Below, in pieces: positions 3,214 to 55,047 of a stretch of 64,000 bases of DNA. The position numbers and the translations under genes are program-made. The DNA lies in the sequence record MT611523.1, one strand, 5' to 3'. The stretch comes from Escherichia phage DK-13. The notes beneath the pieces are model-generated. The model was not told the origin of the DNA. It saw only the letters and a program-made list of their open reading frames with translations, and did not search any database. The stretch's first letter is position 1. The number at the start of each line of letters is the position of its first letter.

Positions 3214-4381
3214 GGTCTTCCATCATATCTAAATCGTTTTCGATATCTGCAGCGGACGGTTTTGTCTTACCTTCAGGAGCAGAGTATTTTTCAACCTTGG
3301 AGGCAATAAGCGCATCAACTTCGGCATCAACAACAGCATTGCTATCGATTGCACCCAGTTGGTAATGGCGTTTGATTGCATCACGGAAAGGTTCGTGTTT
3401 AAACAGCGGCCCCCAGAATTCGGTGCAGTTAGTATCTTTTGCGCGCCATGATTTTTCTTCGCGGACCATTTCCCCGGTCTCAACATCAAGATATTCACGG
3501 TTATACCAACCAACTTTTGGTTTAACCACAAATCCGATTTCTATTGCCATATCAAGCAGGCCAGAATACGGGTCAATACCACCATCGAATTTTACATCAA
3601 TGAAGAATTTACTTTTCTCTTTGACCATACGAGATTTTTCGGCGTTCAGAACAAATTGGAAGCCTTCAAGTTCTTTACCAGTTTCTTTAATCTGACGTTT
3701 ACCGATAATGAATACAGTGTCCGCGGAATACATAACACCTGTGCCACCGGTCATAACGGTTTTACTGTACATCTCAATCGTCTCGATTGTATGGTTAACC
3801 GCGACACAAGGAATATCCTTGATACTAAAATAAGGGGTAACAATACGGAACAGAGATTTCAGGGATTTAGCACGAGTCATATCGCCAACGACTTTTTCGT
3901 TCATCGCATCTTCTGTTTCTTTTTTCGACGCCATGTTACCGATTGAGTCAATAAAGATAATGACTTTTTCACCACGCTCAATTGCTTCAAGCTGGTTAAC
4001 CATATCAACTTTCAATTGTTCAACCGACTGGATTGGTGTATGGATAACACGCTCCGGGTCTACTTTCATTGCACGAAGATATGCTTCTGTGATACCAAAT
4101 TCTGAATCATAGAACAAACAGATTGCGTCGGGGTATTTGTTCATATATGCAGAGACCATCGTTAAACCCATATTGGATTTAAAGTGTTTTGACGGACCAG
4201 CAAAAATAGTCAAACCTGACTGCATACCACCATCTAGTGCACCGCTGATTGCAATGTTCAGCATCGGGATTTTTGTACGAACTACATCTTTATCATTAAA
4301 GAACTTGGACTTGGTAAGAGTCGCAGTCATTTTGGATGTAGAAGCTTTAATCAAACGGGATTTCAAATCTGCAATAGACAT
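3203..4381 (-). CDS. uvsX: UvsX RecA-like recombinase
   Basis: 392 aa, RecA/Rad51-fold sequence; T4 UvsX size and position. Confidence 0.93.
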   Translation of the reverse strand: MSIADLKSRLIKASTSKMTATLTKSKFFNDKDVVRTKIPMLNIAISGALDGGMQSGLTIFAGPSKHFKSNMGLTMVSAYMNKYPDAICLFYDSEFGITEAYLRAMKVDPERVIHTPIQSVEQLKVDMVNQLEAIERGEKVIIFIDSIGNMASKKETEDAMNEKVVGDMTRAKSLKSLFRIVTPYFSIKDIPCVAVNHTIETIEMYSKTVMTGGTGVMYSADTVFIIGKRQIKETGKELEGFQFVLNAEKSRMVKEKSKFFIDVKFDGGIDPYSGLLDMAIEIGFVVKPKVGWYNREYLDVETGEMVREEKSWRAKDTNCTEFWGPLFKHEPFRDAIKRHYQLGAIDSNAVVDAEVDALIASKVEKYSAPEGKTKPSAADIENDLDMMEDLDE

Positions 4382-4460
4382 TCATTTTTTCCATAGGCAC
4401 CATTATATTTTTCTCACAGGTTTAAGATAGGATAATTATATCACTGTATTTTCAGAGCAA

Positions 4461-4589
4461 TTAACGATTGAATCCACGATTAATTGCACGTTCAACAATC
4501 TTCCGGGTCTGACGTTTGTCCCACCAGTACATAAAACCAATACCAAATGCAGACAACAGCCATAGGCTAATCAATAACATACCAATCAT
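4461..4589 (-). CDS. Small hydrophobic membrane peptide (42 aa)
   Basis: Hand-translated ORF MIGMLLISLWLLSAFGIGFMYWWDKRQTRKIVERAINRGFNR, below the 60 aa track cut-off, fills the gap between uvsX and the lipoprotein gene. Confidence 0.3.
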   Translation of the reverse strand: MIGMLLISLWLLSAFGIGFMYWWDKRQTRKIVERAINRGFNR

Positions 4590-4610
4590 AATATTCTTCT
4601 CGCAGTTTGT

Positions 4611-5114
4611 TTAGTTAATACCTTGGCGTGCTTTCTCTTTAGCTACACATTTATTAATATAGCTCAGACGGTTTTGAGCAGAACGCTGATACATATCGCG
4701 GTACTCATTAGCTTTTGGAGAACCCGTCTCTGCTGCCTGATAAGCTTCTGCGCGCATGATGTTTATCTGCATATTGATGTATGACATGCAGACCTGTGAA
4801 ATCTGGTTAACAGTATCCAGGTCATTTTGTCGCTTGGTTTCTGCTTCCAGCTTGGCAATGATTTCGTCATGCTTCGCAGCTTGCTCGCGTTTGTACTCAA
4901 TTTCTTGTTGAGCATATTTCGCGCAGTTGTTTCCACATTGATTGTTGTCGCGTTTGTAGATAAGTCCAGTACCACCTTTGAAATCAAAGGAACCATTATG
5001 CACCTGACGGTCTGCAGCAATTCGCGCTTTACCAATCTCGTTGGCATTAACAACATCACCCTGGTAAGCACAACCAGATAGCAGCATAACAGCTGCGATA
5101 GCTAACTTTTTCAT
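4611..5114 (-). CDS. Lipoprotein with coiled-coil region (occupies the T4 beta-gt/42 position)
   Basis: 167 aa; signal peptide MKKLAIAAVMLLSGC with lipobox; sits where T4 carries beta-gt and gene 42. Confidence 0.6.
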   Translation of the reverse strand: MKKLAIAAVMLLSGCAYQGDVVNANEIGKARIAADRQVHNGSFDFKGGTGLIYKRDNNQCGNNCAKYAQQEIEYKREQAAKHDEIIAKLEAETKRQNDLDTVNQISQVCMSYINMQINIMRAEAYQAAETGSPKANEYRDMYQRSAQNRLSYINKCVAKEKARQGIN

Positions 5115-11896: not shown

Positions 11897-11936
11897 AAAT
11901 AATATTATCCGTTGCAGTATCAAACAAGGGTCTGAT

Positions 11937-12653
11937 ATGAATTATAACATCATTTACCAAAAGCTTATTAGCAGAGCATTGAATCGCAAATTAACCACAT
12001 ACTCTGAAAGTCATCACATTATACCCCGTTGCATGGGTGGGGCAGACGACGCTTCAAATCTTGTTGATTTAACTCCCGAGGAACATTTCGTTTGTCATCA
12101 ACTGTTGGTCAAAATGCATCCAAATAATGCTTCTTTGGTCTATGCCGCGCGCATGATGACAGTTTCCTCACCAAACGCCGACAGAAGCAAAAACAAATTA
12201 TTTGGATGGCTTCGTCGTAAAAACTTGGAAGCTCAACAAAATAAAATTTTCTCCGATGAAACCAGAAAGAAAATGTCAGAATCCGCCAAATTAAAACCGA
12301 GAGTTGAATGTCCACACTGTGGAAAAACCGGTCTCGTTGGCAATATGAATCGTTGGCATTTTGATAACTGTTCCAAAGGTCCAAACAAGGTTGTTCATAC
12401 TATTCCAGAAAAACAAAAGCAAAAAATTTCAGTAGGATTAAAACAAGCTAAACATGAAATTTTAACTTGTGAATTTTGTGGTCTTGAAGGTAAAAAGTGT
12501 GTTATATCCACTCACCAACAATTCTGCAAATCCAATCCAAACCGGAAGAAAAAGGTGGACCCCAAAATTCAGTGTCCACATTGTAATGTAGTCGGTACGC
12601 CAGCCAATATGAAACGTTGGCATTTTGATAACTGCAAAATGAAGCCTCAATAA
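11937..12653 (+). CDS. Free-standing HNH homing endonuclease with three C-terminal zinc-finger repeats
   Basis: HNH motif SHHIIPRCMGG...SNLV.LTPEEHFVCH; repeats CPHCGKTGLVGNMNRWHFDNC, CEFCGLEGKKC, CPHCNVVGTPANMKRWHFDNC; opposite strand to flanking 45.2 and 46; AAGGG RBS before ATG 11937. Confidence 0.85.
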   Translation: MNYNIIYQKLISRALNRKLTTYSESHHIIPRCMGGADDASNLVDLTPEEHFVCHQLLVKMHPNNASLVYAARMMTVSSPNADRSKNKLFGWLRRKNLEAQQNKIFSDETRKKMSESAKLKPRVECPHCGKTGLVGNMNRWHFDNCSKGPNKVVHTIPEKQKQKISVGLKQAKHEILTCEFCGLEGKKCVISTHQQFCKSNPNRKKKVDPKIQCPHCNVVGTPANMKRWHFDNCKMKPQ

Positions 12654-12658
12654 GAGGC

Positions 12659-14341
12659 TCATTCCAGAACAGTAAATCGACCGACTTTTTTCATTTGAAG
12701 ATGCTGTCCATATGCTTCTGGGTCGTGTTCACGATGGCTAATGATAAACACGTTTTGACCTTCCAATTTATTAATAATTGCCTGGATAGCTTTGATGCCT
12801 TCGGCGTCAGTGGCTGAATCCATGACCTCATCCAGAATCAACGTACTAATTTGCACACCAGATACTTTCGCAGCAATATCACGCCATGTAAACAGCAATG
12901 CGATATCGATACGAGCTTTTTCACCCTGGCTAAATGATGCATAGCTGAAGTCTTCACGTCCACGAGATTTAATCGTTTCGTTGAACTCTTCATCTAACGT
13001 AAAACTATAATCAGCTTCCATAACTTTAAGATAAGCGTTTATCTGCTTATTAAAGATAGGAATATATTTCTTAATAATCGCGCCCTTAATACCAGAATCT
13101 TTCAACATATCCGTTAAGATACCACGTTGATATTTTTCCATCACAAGGTCGGATTTTTGTTTGACTATTTTATCAAGCTGGTCTTGAAGCATTTTAATGT
13201 CTGCTGCATGGTCAATAAATTCCGACTTAGCTTGCTCGATTAATGCTTTAACCTTTTTAGCTTTTTCGACAGTCTGGACTAAGGTTTGTTTCTTAGTTTG
13301 AATGTCTTGAGCTATTGTACGCTGGTTTTGTCTTGCCTTGGTATACGCATCAAATTGCTCTTGAACAGCATTCTGGCGAGCTTTATGCTTATCAGCTGAT
13401 GCATTACATTCTTCAATCTTTGACTCAATCCTGGCGACAATGGGGTCTCCTGGATGCAACTGACTGGCACAAGTCTGACAACAACCACCTTTCTCGTACA
13501 GACCAACAACCTTTCGGTAATCGTCTATCTTCGACTTAATCAGGAATGATTCCTGCTTTAACTTCGTGAGTTCATGCTCAGGGTCTTCTCCCAAGATTAT
13601 CTCGGTCAGTCTTGTTGTTGCTTCTTCGATAGTCGTCTTGATTCCACGTGCTTCTGTGGCAAGTTCATCATACATCGTTTGCAGCCGCAACAGATTATCA
13701 CCTGATAATTTTCTTTGACGGTCTTCGTTGTCCTGATAGATTTTAATCTGTTGAACAATACCATCATGCTGCACATCCATCACCTGGATTTGACTATTGA
13801 CTTCACGGATAAGAGATTTGTTCAGCTTATCCATATCGGCCAGTACAGAAACCTCTAAAAGGTCTTCGACGAGTTTTCTTCTTGCAGGAGTGGATAGGCC
13901 CATAAAAGGGGTATATCCAGCTGTGCCGAGTACGACAATCTGTTTGAAGCTTGCGTAGGACATTCCAATGAGCTGTTCAAATTCCGCTTGGAAGTCTTTA
14001 CTGCTGGCAGATTCATCAAGACGTTTACCGCCACAAGAGATTTCAAAAACATTGGGTTTTTGCCCGCGTTTGATATAGTATTCTTTTCCATCATATTCCA
14101 TCCACAATTCAACGAGCATATCTTTTTTGTTGCTCGAGTTAATCAACTGGCCTTTCTTTACATCACGGAAAGGCTTACCGAACATAGCAAAGGTAACCGC
14201 TTCAAGGAACGTAGATTTACCCGCACCATTCTTGCCGGTGACCAGAGTTTTTTGGACTTTATCCAGTTCAACAGTAATCGGTTGAGCACCAACCGACATA
14301 ATATTTTTATAGATAACTTTCTTAAGCTTAAAAGTCTTCAC
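12659..14341 (-). CDS. 46: gp46 recombination nuclease subunit (Rad50/SbcC-like)
   Basis: 560 aa; Walker A GKNGAGKST; coiled-coil middle; same size as T4 gp46. Confidence 0.95.
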   Translation of the reverse strand: MKTFKLKKVIYKNIMSVGAQPITVELDKVQKTLVTGKNGAGKSTFLEAVTFAMFGKPFRDVKKGQLINSSNKKDMLVELWMEYDGKEYYIKRGQKPNVFEISCGGKRLDESASSKDFQAEFEQLIGMSYASFKQIVVLGTAGYTPFMGLSTPARRKLVEDLLEVSVLADMDKLNKSLIREVNSQIQVMDVQHDGIVQQIKIYQDNEDRQRKLSGDNLLRLQTMYDELATEARGIKTTIEEATTRLTEIILGEDPEHELTKLKQESFLIKSKIDDYRKVVGLYEKGGCCQTCASQLHPGDPIVARIESKIEECNASADKHKARQNAVQEQFDAYTKARQNQRTIAQDIQTKKQTLVQTVEKAKKVKALIEQAKSEFIDHAADIKMLQDQLDKIVKQKSDLVMEKYQRGILTDMLKDSGIKGAIIKKYIPIFNKQINAYLKVMEADYSFTLDEEFNETIKSRGREDFSYASFSQGEKARIDIALLFTWRDIAAKVSGVQISTLILDEVMDSATDAEGIKAIQAIINKLEGQNVFIISHREHDPEAYGQHLQMKKVGRFTVLE

Positions 14342-20664: not shown

Positions 20665-21135
20665 TTAATCATGTTTCCACACCCCATTGGTATTTGACCA
20701 AAGTCGCTGATTATCTGACCCTCGCCACAGTTTTTTGGTCGGAAGATTTTTCTCATACTTCCCATCAATAATAACATCAACATATTTAAGCATTTCTAGT
20801 TGTTTAATATCTTCAAACTTATATCCTGTCCACAGCCAAATGTTTTTATTGGGATAAAGATTTTTAATAGTTTGAACCACAGAGTGAATAACATCTCGGT
20901 TATCAGGATAGAGAGGGTCTCCTCCAGTTATAGTTAATCCTTCTATATAATCATTATTCAAACATTCAATTAATTGTTCTAGTGTTTCACCAGTGAATGG
21001 AACACCATTTCTAGCATTCCATGTTGATTTATTATAACACCCTTCGCATTTATGCAAACAACCTGTAACGAAAAGAACGACCCTACATCCAGGGCCATTC
21101 ACAAAATCGCAAGGATAAAATCTATCATAATTCAT
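20665..21135 (-). CDS. nrdG: NrdG anaerobic ribonucleotide reductase activating protein (radical SAM)
   Basis: 156 aa; Cys cluster CLHKCEGC; same size as T4 NrdG; overlaps the nrdD stop. Confidence 0.9.
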   Translation of the reverse strand: MNYDRFYPCDFVNGPGCRVVLFVTGCLHKCEGCYNKSTWNARNGVPFTGETLEQLIECLNNDYIEGLTITGGDPLYPDNRDVIHSVVQTIKNLYPNKNIWLWTGYKFEDIKQLEMLKYVDVIIDGKYEKNLPTKKLWRGSDNQRLWSNTNGVWKHD

Positions 21136-22949
21136 TGGTGTTTAACCCTATGCATGATTTCTTTATTTTTGCCGAGATTAAATCCGCGTTCGTTCGGATT
21201 TCCCAAATAGCCGCATGTTCTTCTTATTGTGTTCATCTTTTTAGGGTCAGTTTCTCCACAAATAGAACAAACAAATCCGTTTTCAGTAGGAGTCATTTCA
21301 TGGGTACTTCCACATGTAAAACATTTATCCACTGGCATATTAACACCAAAATAATCTAAATGCTGTGCAGCATAATCCCATACAGCCTCAAGACCTTTTA
21401 GGTTATTTTTCATATCAGGAAGTTCAACATAAGAAATGTGACCGCCTGTCGCAATGAAATGATATGGGGCTTCACGAGAAATCTTTTCAAACGGGGTAAT
21501 ATTTTTTTCTACTGAAACATGGAAACTGTTAGTGTACCAGCCTTTATCGGTAACATCTTTTACACTTCCATATTTTTCGGTATCAAGTTTACAGAAGCGA
21601 TAGCACAGGTTTTCAGCAGGAGTAGAATACAAACTAAAAGCAAATCCGGTTCTTTCAGTCCACTGCTTAAGACGAGCATTCATTTTAGTCAAAATTTCTT
21701 GCCCAATATCACGACCGGCAAGAATATTCAATTCGTGAATACCGATGTATCCTAGGGACACTGAACTTCTACCGTTTTTAAATAACTCAATTATATCATC
21801 ATCAGGTTTAAGACGAACCCCGAATGCACCTTCTTGGTAAAGAATAGGAGCAACAGTCGCTTTAACTCCTTTTAAGGAACTAATTCTACACATCAAAGCT
21901 TCAAAACATAAATCCATTCGCTCATTGAACAATTCAGTAAATTTCTGTTCATTGAACTGTGTTCCAATATAAGAATCTAACGCAATACGAGGAAGATTCA
22001 GTGTTACAACACCAAGATTATTACGTCCATCAAGAATTTCATTACCAGTCGAATCTTTCCATACGCCCAAGAAACTACGGCAACCCATTGGAGAAACAGG
22101 AATAGATGAACCGGTGATAGCTTTATTGTTCTTAGCCGAAATGATGTCAGGATACATTCTTTTGCTTGCACACTCTAGAGCAAGCTGCTTAATATCATAG
22201 TTCGGGTCGTCTTTATAAAGATTAACACCTTCTTCAACAAACATAACAAGCTTAGGGAAAATAGGAGTTATCCCATCGCGACCGAGACCTTTAATACGAT
22301 TTTTCAGAATTGCTTTCTGAATCATTCGTTCGGTCCAGTCAGTTCCGGTACCAAATGTAATTGTTACAAAAGGCGTTTGTCCGTTTGAACTAAAGAGAGT
22401 ATTTACTTCATATTCATAAGCTTGGAATGCATCATATACGTCTTTTTCTGTTTTAGATTGAGCATAATTCAACGCATCAGTGATTTGCCATTTTTCCGCG
22501 TCCTCAATATGTTTCGCATAGGTACGTTTAACATAAGGAGAAAGTACTTTATCTACATTCGCAAAAGTCGTTCCGCCATATTGATGGGAAGCAACCTGCG
22601 CAGTAATTTGTGCCATAATTGCAGTAGCAACACTGATTGATTTAGGAGTTTCAATCTGTGCATTACCGAGCTTAAACCCGTTCTCAAGCATTCCTTTTAA
22701 ATCTACTAAACAGCAATTAGTAAATGGAAGAGCAGGGGAATAATCAATATCATGGAAATGAATAATTCCGCTTTCATGTGCTTTCATAATAAAAGACGCG
22801 ACCATATTTTTGGCAATGTGTTTAGATACAATACCAGCCATAAGGTCACGTTGAGTTGGAAAAACACGAGAATCTTTATTAGCATTCTCGTTTAAAAGGT
22901 CTTTATTAGTTTTATGAATCAATCCTTCAATTTCGTTTTCAATTGTCAT
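21132..22949 (-). CDS. nrdD: NrdD anaerobic ribonucleoside-triphosphate reductase
   Basis: 605 aa; C-terminal glycyl-radical motif RTCGYLG and Zn-ribbon cysteines; single uninterrupted ORF. Confidence 0.95.
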   Translation of the reverse strand: MTIENEIEGLIHKTNKDLLNENANKDSRVFPTQRDLMAGIVSKHIAKNMVASFIMKAHESGIIHFHDIDYSPALPFTNCCLVDLKGMLENGFKLGNAQIETPKSISVATAIMAQITAQVASHQYGGTTFANVDKVLSPYVKRTYAKHIEDAEKWQITDALNYAQSKTEKDVYDAFQAYEYEVNTLFSSNGQTPFVTITFGTGTDWTERMIQKAILKNRIKGLGRDGITPIFPKLVMFVEEGVNLYKDDPNYDIKQLALECASKRMYPDIISAKNNKAITGSSIPVSPMGCRSFLGVWKDSTGNEILDGRNNLGVVTLNLPRIALDSYIGTQFNEQKFTELFNERMDLCFEALMCRISSLKGVKATVAPILYQEGAFGVRLKPDDDIIELFKNGRSSVSLGYIGIHELNILAGRDIGQEILTKMNARLKQWTERTGFAFSLYSTPAENLCYRFCKLDTEKYGSVKDVTDKGWYTNSFHVSVEKNITPFEKISREAPYHFIATGGHISYVELPDMKNNLKGLEAVWDYAAQHLDYFGVNMPVDKCFTCGSTHEMTPTENGFVCSICGETDPKKMNTIRRTCGYLGNPNERGFNLGKNKEIMHRVKHQ

Positions 22950-23419
22950 TTTAAACTCTTTCTAAGCTGCTTCTTAAATGAAGCCATTAATTGTGTTTTT
23001 GTGTCAGATTCATTATAAGTCATACCGTTCAAAAGCATTTCCCGAATCATTTCTTCTTTCCCCAGACGACCGAACTCTTTGGCTTTGTCTGTTACAAAAT
23101 TGGGGTGAATATTGTTTTCGGTATAATCAGATTTCAGATAGACAAGCAAACTCTCCAACCATTCCAGGTAGTCAACATTGCGACCTTTCAGACCCGAACG
23201 GCTGAACTTATGCTTCATTTGCCCTTCTGTTCCATTGCACAGATTGCATAGTAACCCGCGAACCTTACCAGCTTTTGGCCCGTTCAATTCGTGGTCATGG
23301 TCAAGATGGTTGGCCTGAACATCGGAGTCCAAATCACGGTGGCAAATTGGACACTTACCAGCTTGTGCATCATAAAGTTTTTGTTTTTCTTCTTTGTATA
23401 ATTTGCCAGTCAACAACAT
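22946..23419 (-). CDS. 49: gp49 endonuclease VII (Holliday junction resolvase)
   Basis: 157 aa; CPICHRDLD...HLDHDHELNG...LLCNLCN zinc/HNH-like motifs typical of T4 EndoVII; same length. Confidence 0.9.
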   Translation of the reverse strand: MLLTGKLYKEEKQKLYDAQAGKCPICHRDLDSDVQANHLDHDHELNGPKAGKVRGLLCNLCNGTEGQMKHKFSRSGLKGRNVDYLEWLESLLVYLKSDYTENNIHPNFVTDKAKEFGRLGKEEMIREMLLNGMTYNESDTKTQLMASFKKQLRKSLK

Positions 23420-23454
23420 AATAAACCCTTACCATTATTAGATAAGGGTATTTA

Positions 23455-23640
23455 TTATTTTTCAAATGTGCTATAGAACGAACGATGCAACCGTTTAAAT
23501 TGACGAATCATCTTTTTGGTAGGACGAGTATACAATCCCACACAGGTGGCCATAAACTGGTCAGTAGGACTTCCTTTAATAAGAAGTTTCCAGACCTTGT
23601 CACCGTTTAACTTTTCGGTATAGACTAATTTAGTTTTCAT
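23455..23640 (-). CDS. Hypothetical protein
   Basis: 61 aa basic ORF. Confidence 0.4.
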   Translation of the reverse strand: MKTKLVYTEKLNGDKVWKLLIKGSPTDQFMATCVGLYTRPTKKMIRQFKRLHRSFYSTFEK

Positions 23641-23939
23641 ACAGCCTCAAATTCATTATCATCGTTAGTCCAAAAACACCAGAATGCAGATTTGGTGCCT
23701 TCATACATTTCTTTGGTGTATTCATATACCTTACCATTGAACTCAATAGCAGTCACACCAATGATTTCAGGATTGCCCCAGGGAGAAATCTCCACCTTCA
23801 AGATTTTAACTTTTGCACCTTCACAGAGCTTACCAGATTCAAAACCGCGATTTCCGTTTAATTCAGGCCAGTCAACATAATGGTCAACGGTTTCTTCAGT
23901 AATACGAACAGTTTTACCTTCAAATTCAAATAAATTCAT
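23637..23939 (-). CDS. Hypothetical protein
   Basis: 100 aa ORF. Confidence 0.45.
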   Translation of the reverse strand: MNLFEFEGKTVRITEETVDHYVDWPELNGNRGFESGKLCEGAKVKILKVEISPWGNPEIIGVTAIEFNGKVYEYTKEMYEGTKSAFWCFWTNDDNEFEAV

Positions 23940-24112
23940 CAGAATGCCTCATCAGAAAAGCGGAGTTGAGCTTCAAGCCAATGAATGTAGTCAGCTGCAG
24001 CAAAAATTAAAGCAGATTCTTCATCGGGTAACTTATGAGAATCTGACAATTCGTAAAGTGAATGCTCAATCAGACGGCCTTTGTGACGGCCAACTTCAAT
24101 TTTGGTACTCAT
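23939..24112 (-). CDS. Small hypothetical protein (57 aa)
   Basis: Hand-translated ORF MSTKIEVGRHKGRLIEHSLYELSDSHKLPDEES...; stop overlaps the start of the downstream gene. Confidence 0.3.
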   Translation of the reverse strand: MSTKIEVGRHKGRLIEHSLYELSDSHKLPDEESALIFAAADYIHWLEAQLRFSDEAF

Positions 24113-24228
24113 ATCCAAACTCCATATCGATTAACTCATTGTTTGAAGGTTCATTATAATCTATTTCGGAATCGTTGTAAACAGGTTCCTCTGGCTCGAC
24201 AGTTTCAAATCTACATACAAACCAAGGT

Positions 24229-24999
24229 TTATTCATTATTCTTTTTCCTAGCATCAGAAGCAGCTTTTCTTCTAGTTCTAGTCCTTTCTAAATCAGCAGC
24301 AATCAAATTAGCTATATTAGTAACCGGATTACCAAATTCATCATAAGTAATATATTTCCAAGCATATCCAAATGTATGATTTCTCTCATTAAGCAGGCAC
24401 CTTTTAATAGCGCTGCCTGCTTTATAAATTGAAAGAAATTTAGCTGCATCTGGTAAATAATCAAAAGTTTCTACCAATTCACCTGAACTTAAATCAAATG
24501 CACCAAAAAGCTCAATAGTGTATTTACTCCTATCAAGACTGGCTTTAGCTTCATGCTTTAAGTGGTTTATTTCTTTTAGAATTTTAAGGTCTAATTGTCC
24601 TGGTATTTTATCTATCTGTACACCCATTCTAGATAAAGCATACCCCATTTTATAGTTTCCTGATTTGGCCAACCAATAGTGAGCCATAATATGGCTTTCT
24701 ATACTTAGATTTACAAGATTCCATTTAGACGTTTTAAATTCAGGAAATAAGGATTTAGGTAATATATGGTGAGACTCGGTTTTACCTTTTATTAAAGGCC
24801 CGGAAGACTCTATTAAAGAGAAATAGTTTTCAGCAAATTGCCAATAAGGCAATTTGCTTTTAAGAAGTTCTTTAATTTCGTCTAAGGTTTTAGTAGGCTT
24901 AACGGTCACTCCAATAGCTTGATACTTCAAAATCAGGCTCGCCGTCGTCCCAGTACCAGGGACCCACCGGATGCCAATCGCCATGCTTATCTTCTTCAT
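24229..24999 (-). CDS. Free-standing HNH homing endonuclease with C-terminal DNA-binding module
   Basis: HNH motif ESHHILPKSLF...WNLVNLSIESHIMAHYWL; C-terminal region resembles homing-endonuclease DNA-binding modules; inserted between 49 and nrdC; start uncertain. Confidence 0.7.
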   Translation of the reverse strand: MKKISMAIGIRWVPGTGTTASLILKYQAIGVTVKPTKTLDEIKELLKSKLPYWQFAENYFSLIESSGPLIKGKTESHHILPKSLFPEFKTSKWNLVNLSIESHIMAHYWLAKSGNYKMGYALSRMGVQIDKIPGQLDLKILKEINHLKHEAKASLDRSKYTIELFGAFDLSSGELVETFDYLPDAAKFLSIYKAGSAIKRCLLNERNHTFGYAWKYITYDEFGNPVTNIANLIAADLERTRTRRKAASDARKKNNE

Positions 25000-25207
25000 A
25001 TTCTATAGATTCAAGCCCAACGTATTGCCATTGGACTTCATAAGCAGTGCCCCCGATTACAACAGTGTTCTCACCATACGGGTTAGCCACAGCAAAGTCA
25101 ATACCTTCTTCCTTTGCCAGGGCTACCATGTATTCATAGAGTTTATATTCCAGGTCGTCTTCGTTGCCGTCACCCAGATAAATTGTTTGTCCGTCTAATT
25201 CACTCAT
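24899..25207 (-). CDS. Hypothetical acidic protein
   Basis: 102 aa, Asp/Glu/Trp-rich; 3' end overlaps the HNH ORF. Confidence 0.4.
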   Translation of the reverse strand: MSELDGQTIYLGDGNEDDLEYKLYEYMVALAKEEGIDFAVANPYGENTVVIGGTAYEVQWQYVGLESIEYEEDKHGDWHPVGPWYWDDGEPDFEVSSYWSDR

Positions 25208-25393: not shown

Positions 25394-25657
25394 TCATTTA
25401 AAATATTCTCGCAGTTGGTCAAAGCCACCAATATGACTTCCATCAGGGGCAAATACTTGCGGCATGGTCAAACCAATTTGGGATTCGCGACCAAGCGCAA
25501 CCAGGAGTTGAGCAATCTTCTCATCATCAAACACACCTTTTTCCGGCATAACATTGATGAACTCGTAAGGTTGTTTTTTAACGTCAAGTAAACGTTTTGC
25601 ATTGTCGCAGAAAACGCAACGATGAATGTTTGAATCGTAACCATATACTTTAAACAT
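25394..25657 (-). CDS. nrdC: NrdC thioredoxin
   Basis: 87 aa; near-colinear with T4 thioredoxin ([22 protein letters not shown]...[26 protein letters not shown]). Confidence 0.92.
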
Positions 25658-35833: not shown

Positions 35834-35905
35834 AAGGACTCCTATTGTTGGTCATGATTACGCTTTGCAGCCTTAACATAGCGGAATACTAGTTAGTAAC
35901 TGTAT

Positions 35906-51875: not shown

Positions 51876-51952
51876 TGGTCGGGGTGGTGGGATTCTAACC
51901 CACAACCTACGGTTTAGAAGACCGTTGCTCTATACAATTGAGCTACACCCCG
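51876..51952 (-). tRNA. tRNA-Arg (anticodon TCT)
   Basis: Hand-folded cloverleaf: acceptor CGGGGTG/CACCCCG, D stem GCTC/GAGC, anticodon stem ACGGT/ACCGT with loop CTTCTAA, T stem GTGGG/CCCAC, encoded CCA. Confidence 0.85.
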
Positions 51953-52028
51953 GGTGGCCCCATCCGGACTTGAACCGGAAACCTGCCAGTTATGAGCCGG
52001 ATGCTCTAACCAATTGAGCTACAGGGCC
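51953..52028 (-). tRNA. tRNA-Ile2-like (anticodon CAT; AUA-decoding after lysidine modification, or Met)
   Basis: Hand-folded cloverleaf: acceptor GGCCCTG/TGGGGCC, anticodon loop CTCATAA, T arm TCCGG-TTCAAGT-CCGGA; overall resembles E. coli tRNA-Ile2; abuts tRNA-Arg. Confidence 0.8.
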
Positions 52029-54999: not shown

Positions 55000-55027
55000 T
55001 GTTCGTTAGTGTAGGTGCATAATACTG
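55000..55027 (-). promoter_or_regulatory. Perfect 11-bp-stem hairpin between acb1 and the IP array
   Basis: GTGTAGGTGCA-GTATTAT-GCACCTACAC on the minus strand; no U-run after it, so probably an RNA processing or stability element rather than a terminator. Confidence 0.4.
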
Positions 55028-55047
55028 CACCTACACTCATTTGTATA

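Follow-up and report, generated by a model that had tools for sequence, protein, structure and literature searches.

The minus-strand open reading frame (ORF) between gene 49 and nrdC of Escherichia phage DK-13 is very probably a free-standing homing endonuclease gene of the T4 Mob (HNH) family, which forms a homing cassette of ~0.7 kb at the 49.3/49.1 junction of a Gaprivervirus-type phage. All positions refer to the window, i.e., the whole analyzed stretch of 64,000 nt (record MT611523.1). The encoded 226-aa protein matches PHROG 655, "homing endonuclease" (E = 1e-28), and the preliminary description of a free-standing HNH endonuclease gene was upheld, with the exception of its 5' boundary. 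The gene as such is already known: its annotation as a putative homing endonuclease in phage VR7 dates from 2010, DK-13 carries an annotation of it as well (QMV33996.1, identical protein), and the T4 Mob family is well described. The counterpart in vB_EcoM_VR7 is VR7ORF086c (YP_004063767.1/ADR32461.1; UniProt E5FIS9; "putative homing endonuclease / HNH endonuclease"), a 681-nt gene at the same 49.3/49.1 site that encodes an identical protein. Its background differs, with flanks that are 9-11% diverged, a 49.3 end of the empty-site haplotype, and no nrdD adjoining gene 49.

The mechanism that we propose is modeled on MobE of T4, a member of the same family with a distant sequence and a different locus (nrdA/nrdB). 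MobE is promoterless and translationally coupled to its upstream gene; its nicks fall in the 5' part of nrdB, the downstream gene, which is polymorphic there in mobE+ phages (PMC2790892). By analogy, the window gene would belong to the nrdC-49.3-49.1-pin transcript, and coupling to 49.3 would provide for a low level of translation. During mixed infection, the enzyme would nick or cut the DNA of cassette-free relatives, the most likely site being the 5' end of 49.1 or its vicinity, and recombinational repair would copy the cassette into the recipient (intronless homing), together with the recoded, presumably cleavage-resistant, first ~8 codons of 49.1. In the lineage of the window, the cassette would have replaced gene 49.2.

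The 49.3/49.1 junction and diversity of the cassette

The window belongs to a T4-like coliphage of the Gaprivervirus group and is ~94% identical to RZ, UPEC07, SP18, and similar phages; the phage collection contained no record identical to it. The surroundings of the endonuclease gene are encoded on the minus strand throughout, with all neighbors co-oriented (Table 1). Gene 49 is followed by a DUF7279 ORF, two PinA-like ORFs, 49.1, the HNH ORF, 49.3, a 55-aa ORF, and nrdC, which confirms the claimed position between gene 49 and nrdC. The claimed proximity to the anaerobic RNR genes also holds, but nrdD is intron-free here. The nrdD ORF is uninterrupted, and an Rfam scan of the whole window returned two adjacent tRNA genes (51879-52028, minus strand) as its sole hits and no group I intron, so that the window lacks the T4 nrdD intron with I-TevII.

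Table 1. Features of the endonuclease gene, its product, and its neighborhood in the window.
Feature	Position	Strand	Remarks
nrdD	21132-22949	-	uninterrupted, 605 aa
Gene 49, endonuclease VII	22946-23419	-	
gp49.1, downstream gene	24096-24236	-	PHROG 2382, E = 5e-26; ATG 24236 overlaps the endonuclease stop (ATGAATAA); AGGA 24246-24249; alternative ATG 24254
Recoded 49.1 5' end	24207-24228	-	KPWFVCRF vs KPWYTARW; accompanies the endonuclease gene
Homing endonuclease CDS, 226 aa	24229-24909	-	GTG start 24909; TAA stop 24229-24231; 681/681 nt identical to VR7ORF086c
Basic C-terminal helix (predicted), residues 199-225	24235-24315	-	...DLERTRTRRKAASDARKKNN; absent from homologues
C-terminal DNA-binding module (predicted), residues ~133-188	24346-24513	-	NUMOD1/I-HmuI-NUMOD-like by transitive homology
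HNH catalytic core (predicted), residues 45-77	24679-24777	-	ESHHILPKS...WNLVNLSIESHIMAH
Perfect 11-bp inverted repeat, 5-nt loop	24832-24858	-	51 nt downstream of GTG, in the 5' coding region
gp49.3, upstream gene	24899-25207	-	PHROG 4203, E = 2e-45; annotated 49.3 in VR7/JS98; alignment A1; last 11 nt overlap the endonuclease start (GTGACCGTTAA)
Spurious 30-codon N-terminal extension	24910-24999	-	3' coding part of gp49.3 in another frame
nrdC	25394-25657	-	

In VR7 (L001/L011), gene 49 is followed by a small ORF, 55.8, and nrdH, and nrdD (and nrdG) are absent from this position, whereas nrdD abuts gene 49 in the window and most relatives. A Logan contig from SRR23258051 (L016), which is one of the cassette carriers, has a gene for a 358-aa SegE-like GIY-YIG endonuclease (3549-4625) between the DUF7279 ORF and nrdD, at the usual place of gene 49, and no endonuclease VII gene was called in that stretch. 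The Lon inhibitor PinA, a single protein in T4, corresponds to two ORFs in swapped order in the window (23637-24118, minus strand): the upstream 59-aa ORF (23939-24118, minus strand) matches PinA residues 102-145, and the downstream 100-aa ORF (23637-23939, minus strand) weakly matches residues 21-79. The latter has ~45% DNA identity to its VR7 counterpart, which marks a hypervariable slot. An "EAWsc9 transposase" annotation in the interval was rejected, since it is the small DUF7279 ORF. Inside the conserved part of 49.1, we noted a strong sigma-70-like promoter consensus (TTTACA-17-TATAAT, 11/12; 24153-24181, minus strand), which is kept in aligned related phages and may drive the downstream pin-like genes.

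The endonuclease gene lies exactly at the 49.3/49.1 junction, where three alleles occur in related phages, i.e., empty, 49.2, and endonuclease (alignments A1 and A4). The empty site (RZ, JS98, and VR26) reads ...TGG TGT GAC CGT TAA, and 49.1 is annotated from the overlapping GTG (GTG ACC GTT AAG CCA TGG..., MTVKPW...). The 49.2 allele (SP18, UPEC07, and T4) holds a 321-nt gene, within whose 3' end 49.1 begins as MDYAIKPW. In the endonuclease allele (window and VR7), the insert comes after GTGACCGTTAAGCC, so that the endonuclease takes over the former 49.1 GTG and the first five codons (MTVKP), while its own last codons hold AGGA-N9-ATG (24249-24234), restarting 49.1 as MNKPW. For this new 49.1 start, the gene caller chose a 46-aa form (L008, L016, and L017) and the VR7 annotation a 52-aa form. 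Among 174 records of the phage collection matching the site, a single phage (VR7, two records) carries the endonuclease, the rest being empty or 49.2. Eight further carrier sequences, all with the gene between 49.3 and 49.1, were recovered from NCBI, ENA, and Logan; exact-sequence look-ups located the gene in DK-13 and in several ENA/Logan assemblies.

Identity between the window and VR7 extends over 735 nt (24175-24909), compared to 9-11% mismatches in the adjoining 49.3 and 49.1/pin DNA. Across nine carriers, the mean pairwise difference was 0.68% in the gene, 8.5% in 49.3, and 5.3% in the rest of 49.1, and it was 0% in the scored 24-nt segment 24205-24228, which contains the 22 recoded nucleotides. 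On either side of the cassette, and in several backgrounds, polymorphism returns within 1-6 nt. The GC content of the gene (32.6%, window mean 39.5%) is below that of 99% of same-size windows. The contrast between a near-invariant gene plus recoded 49.1 start and diverged flanks fits a cassette that spreads between phage lineages. Comparative genomics of the 49-nrdC interval, proposed earlier as a check, thus yielded three alleles at one site and a low-diversity cassette, and the claim of an independent mobile element is supported by presence/absence polymorphism and by a diversity ~10-fold lower inside the gene than in the flanks.

The allele of the window is recombinant: as far as GTGACC, its 49.3 end follows the haplotype of phages with 49.2, which is why the cassette most likely displaced 49.2 in this lineage. 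Of the eight other carriers, seven show the empty-site haplotype and one, L016, combines both as a mosaic; an empty-site phage with the 49.3-end haplotype of the window was not found, the best contiguous match being 94%. The joint would then lie at the edge of homology, as break repair across heterology would produce.

The same pattern might in principle arise if co-infecting phages exchanged the cassette by homologous recombination of the ordinary kind, followed by selection, with no contribution of the enzyme's own activity, for instance if the gene benefited the phage through competitor-marker exclusion or stimulation of local amplification (as reported for SegB). T4-like genomes are mosaic, and the window shares another VR7-identical tract of 180 nt (23275-23454); an anti-defense role of SegB is reported in PMC13096335, and PMC10448857 describes nuclease genes as often located at exchange boundaries. 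However, the low diversity is limited precisely to the heterologous block, with polymorphism resuming immediately beside it, as repeated break-initiated conversion across heterology predicts, and the protein belongs to a bona fide homing endonuclease family whose member MobE has been shown to be mobile (PMC2790892). We therefore regard purely passive spread as unlikely; the two views are not mutually exclusive, and both can hold.

Family, domains, and integrity of the protein

An exhaustive HMMER search of 1.84 billion proteins returned 701 cluster representatives at E ≤ 1e-3, which, like the PHROG match, lies far outside what chance would give, and a word-indexed protein search returned one near-identical cluster only. 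There was no direct match to Pfam (including HNH PF01844/PF13392) or NCBIfam even at E ≤ 10, which says little, as Mob-type HNH domains are not covered by these models (Pfam HNH models matched 0 of 54 family members). Sequence searches of the PDB with the protein or its halves gave no match, and the family profile gave only a marginal Cas8f-HNH match there (E = 3.2). A peptide-pattern search of IMG/VR yielded no relatives, and the exact DNA pattern of the HNH core had no match in JGI metagenomes or IMG/VR. Since direct profile and PDB matches are lacking, the domain assignments rest on the family alignment, transitive homology, and predicted structure.

By these means, three parts can be assigned to the protein: a nuclease domain of the HNH (beta-beta-alpha-metal) type at the N-terminus, which is intact, a single NUMOD-like module for DNA binding, and a basic helix at the end. 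An alignment of 32 sequences revealed the conserved HNH pattern TExHHILPKS...WN.V.LS...H..AH with invariant H48, P51, N64, L68, H73, and H77; all of these, as well as H47, are present in the window protein, so the HNH core proposed earlier retains its catalytic-motif residues. An AlphaFold2 model built from 54 sequences was confident (mean pLDDT 88.6). In it, residues 44-82 form a beta-beta-alpha core followed by a helical linker, residues 135-186 a beta-beta-alpha-alpha-beta module, and residues 199-225 a long basic helix, the HNH motif being surrounded by the beta-hairpin and alpha-helix fold. The terminal helix was modeled with pLDDT 79-94, while homologues stop at WKYI; the DNA encoding it also holds the new ribosome-binding site and ATG of 49.1.

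The C-terminal module, likewise suggested in the preliminary description, can be traced through relatives. Residues 127-188 are 50% identical to residues 219-277 of MobC of Yersinia phage PST (BLASTP), a segment that matches PF22083 (E = 2e-4; 8e-5 in P0002) and PF07453 below the gathering score. Furthermore, residues 137-190 match repeats in P0012 and P0015, which score PF22083 at 2.5e-27 and PF07453 at 1e-21, and the module also matches repeated modules in P0009 and in GIY-YIG Seg-type proteins with strong scores for these models. Direct matches to PF07453 or PF22083 were not obtained at E ≤ 10, neither with the whole protein nor with residues 127-195 alone. The region ~127-188 thus aligns with the I-HmuI_NUMOD-like/NUMOD1 segment of MobC and with Seg-type repeats.

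Regarding its affiliation, the sequence evidence identifies the protein as a compact member of the Mob family with the MobC type as nearest relative. BLASTP gave E-values of 8e-27 for PST MobC and 9e-13 for T4 MobB (28% identity), and Foldseek against viral models (BFVD) ranked VR7 E5FIS9 (100%) first, followed by MobC-type, MobB, MobC, MobD-like, and MobE-like proteins. Like other Mob proteins, it has an HNH domain at the N-terminus that is homologous to those of MobA-E, joined to a DNA-binding C-terminal part of the variable kind, and its gene is free-standing between conserved co-oriented genes, outside any intron or intein. The intron-encoded class (I-HmuI or I-TevIII type) does not apply, with no group I intron present and the ORF overlapping protein genes at both ends; I-HmuI (PDB 1U3E), the intron-encoded HNH nicking endonuclease of Bacillus phage SPO1, shares 13% identity with the window protein and no sequence-level match.

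MobC (279 aa in PST, 210 aa in T4) is the closest named relative; the PST protein is 65% identical in the HNH core and 50% in the C-terminal module. Like the window gene, mobC is free-standing and co-oriented, overlaps its upstream gene, and resides in the anaerobic RNR neighborhood (PMC2988022), but its site lies between nrdD and nrdG instead of 49.3 and 49.1. The NUMOD3-like linker repeats of MobC (~120 aa) have no counterpart in the window protein, whose basic C-terminal helix is in turn absent from MobC, and PST mobC has no 5' hairpin. Its activity is entered as "ND", with unknown target, in PMC2988022.

The gene had been described as the second HNH gene of the window, and another family member is indeed encoded at 11934-12653 (plus strand). 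This Mob-like ORF comprises 239 aa from ATG (MNYNIIYQKL...SESHHIIPRCMGG...) with two CPHCG...RWHFDNC zinc-ribbon repeats, matches the family profile (E = 1.6e-18) and weakly the Pfam HNH model, and lies on the strand opposite to its neighbors, just upstream of a gp46-like gene (12659-14341, minus strand).

The gene could also be an inactive relic, an open ORF that lacks a working nuclease and is kept only as the carrier of the 49.1 start signals. For many Mob genes of T4, activity has never been observed (PMC2988022), the protein is devoid of the NUMOD3 linker repeats of MobC-type relatives, and removal of the cassette would take away the ATG and ribosome-binding site of 49.1, which favors retention. 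Nevertheless, we consider a relic quite improbable. A frameshifted or truncated HNH domain, named earlier as the sign of a pseudogene, was not found; all catalytic-motif residues are intact, all nine gene copies are open, and the two gene haplotypes differ at 10-13 sites with a pN/pS of 0.18 (window vs L008), which indicates purifying selection on the endonuclease gene. In addition, the near-identical cassette occurs in backgrounds differing by 5-12% at its edges, which argues for recent repeated transfer.

Translation start and expression signals

The preliminary description had placed the gene at 24229-24999. A 256-codon ORF is present there on the minus strand and contains the quoted motif ESHHILPKSLF...NLVNLSIESHIMAHYWL; the ORF and motif are thus borne out, but the gene does not include the 5' 90 nt (24910-24999). 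The predicted overlap with a 102-aa acidic ORF was confirmed, this ORF being gp49.3, and the start, earlier deemed unclear, could be settled. Five codons upstream of the GTG equivalent to 24909, this reading frame has a TAA in both VR7 and Logan contig L008, and homologues start at about residue 8-12 of the 226-aa form, from which we derive a CDS with an 11-nt overlap with gp49.3. The equivalent of GTG 24909 was also chosen by the VR7 annotators and by an independent gene caller in L008 and L011-L015. The first 30 codons of the 256-codon ORF are an accident of the 49.3 allele of this phage, their sequence being identical to 49.3 of phages without the endonuclease gene. That the product is instead a 256-aa protein from ATG 24999 (or ATG 24984), with an extra N-terminal segment overlapping gp49.3, is scarcely credible: the frame is open from 24999 in the window and likewise for a few codons upstream in L016, but VR7, L008, and L017, with identical or near-identical genes, have the TAA before the GTG, the first ATG of the long ORF is ACG in VR7, the extra segment consists of 49.3 coding sequence that endonuclease-free phages also have, and homologues begin near the start of the short form.

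Automatic calls of the endonuclease ranged from 139 aa (internal ATG; L017, 2501-2920) via 226 aa to 233 aa (upstream TTG; L016, 2501-3202). As the ORF is intact throughout, the GTG start misleads gene callers. The 139-aa call had raised L017 as a decayed copy, which was rejected, since its translation is the intact 226-aa ORF and the short call an artifact of start choice.

At the GTG start, a GGAG directly abuts the codon and there is no well-spaced Shine-Dalgarno sequence; an obvious promoter or ribosome-binding site of the gene's own was not detected. The nearest T4 late promoter (TATAAATA) is located at 35903, with none nearby, and two MotA-box-like TGCTT sites upstream (25254 and 25046) lack a convincing -10 element. 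Folding of 24860-24970 gave no start-masking hairpin (z = +0.27), and no intrinsic terminator was found on the coding strand inside the gene. From its sequence, the gene looks like a promoterless cassette that is read from upstream promoters and translated by coupling. The T4 literature reports the same promoterless and coupled arrangement for mobE, segF (11-bp overlap), mobA, and mobC (PMC2988022, PMC2790892), and many free-standing endonuclease genes of T4 have no translation initiation region of their own (PMC2988022).

The inverted repeat in the 5' coding region folds at -27 kcal/mol (z = -6.1), and three such hairpins occur in the 64 kb compared to ~0.45 expected, the others at 1414-1436 and 55008-55037. 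L008, which has the other haplotype, carries a 9-bp version, and GCAAATTGCC, the half-site of this internal palindrome, shows no enrichment in the remainder of the window. Without a U-tract, the hairpin is not a canonical terminator, in contrast to the regulatory RNA structure in the 5' coding region of mobE, which is an intrinsic terminator with a U-tract (PMC2790892). By analogy with the internal terminators of mobE and segF, it may nonetheless damp expression.

The recoded 49.1 start as a possible target, and implications

Directly after the endonuclease stop, 10-11 of 22 nt differ from endonuclease-free phages (CCTTGGTTTGTATGTAGATTT vs CCATGGTATACCGCTCGATGG). Among 827 phage records with a 49.1 match, the endonuclease-free records listed reach at most 88.6% amino acid identity, compared to 93.5% for VR7, so none of those listed carries the recoded segment. 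An exact search for the segment gave no match in IMG/VR or JGI metagenomes.

By analogy with MobE, we infer that the recoded segment marks or adjoins the target of the enzyme. It may just as well be a fragment of a foreign 49.1 allele that hitch-hiked along, and not an immunity determinant; T4's own 49.1 shares two of the variant codons, CCT and AGA. A more specific version of the target reading is tentative and in our view rather doubtful: the 22 recoded nucleotides would be the enzyme's own target in cleavage-resistant form, the cut would fall within ~25 bp of the insertion point, and the hairpin would be a dedicated expression brake. Intron-encoded endonucleases cut near their insertion point, unlike the characterized free-standing enzymes of T4. 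The latter often cut hundreds of bp from their own gene (PMC2988022), which counts against a proximal target. If the specific version were true, this compact enzyme of 226 aa would represent a minimal Mob endonuclease of natural origin, and its target in phages without the gene could readily be predicted (CCATGGTATACCGCTCGATGG).

As the enzyme is small and its target can be guessed from comparative data, it offers an easy entry point to MobC-like enzymes, for which no targets are known. For the biology of these phages, the locus would provide a clean natural example of how a promoterless selfish gene enters an operon without harm to its neighbors, the endonuclease borrowing the start codon of the downstream gene and returning a new one. 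One site accommodates three alternative alleles, i.e., empty, gene 49.2, and endonuclease, and a homing cassette would account for a sharp island of low diversity in otherwise diverged phage genomes.
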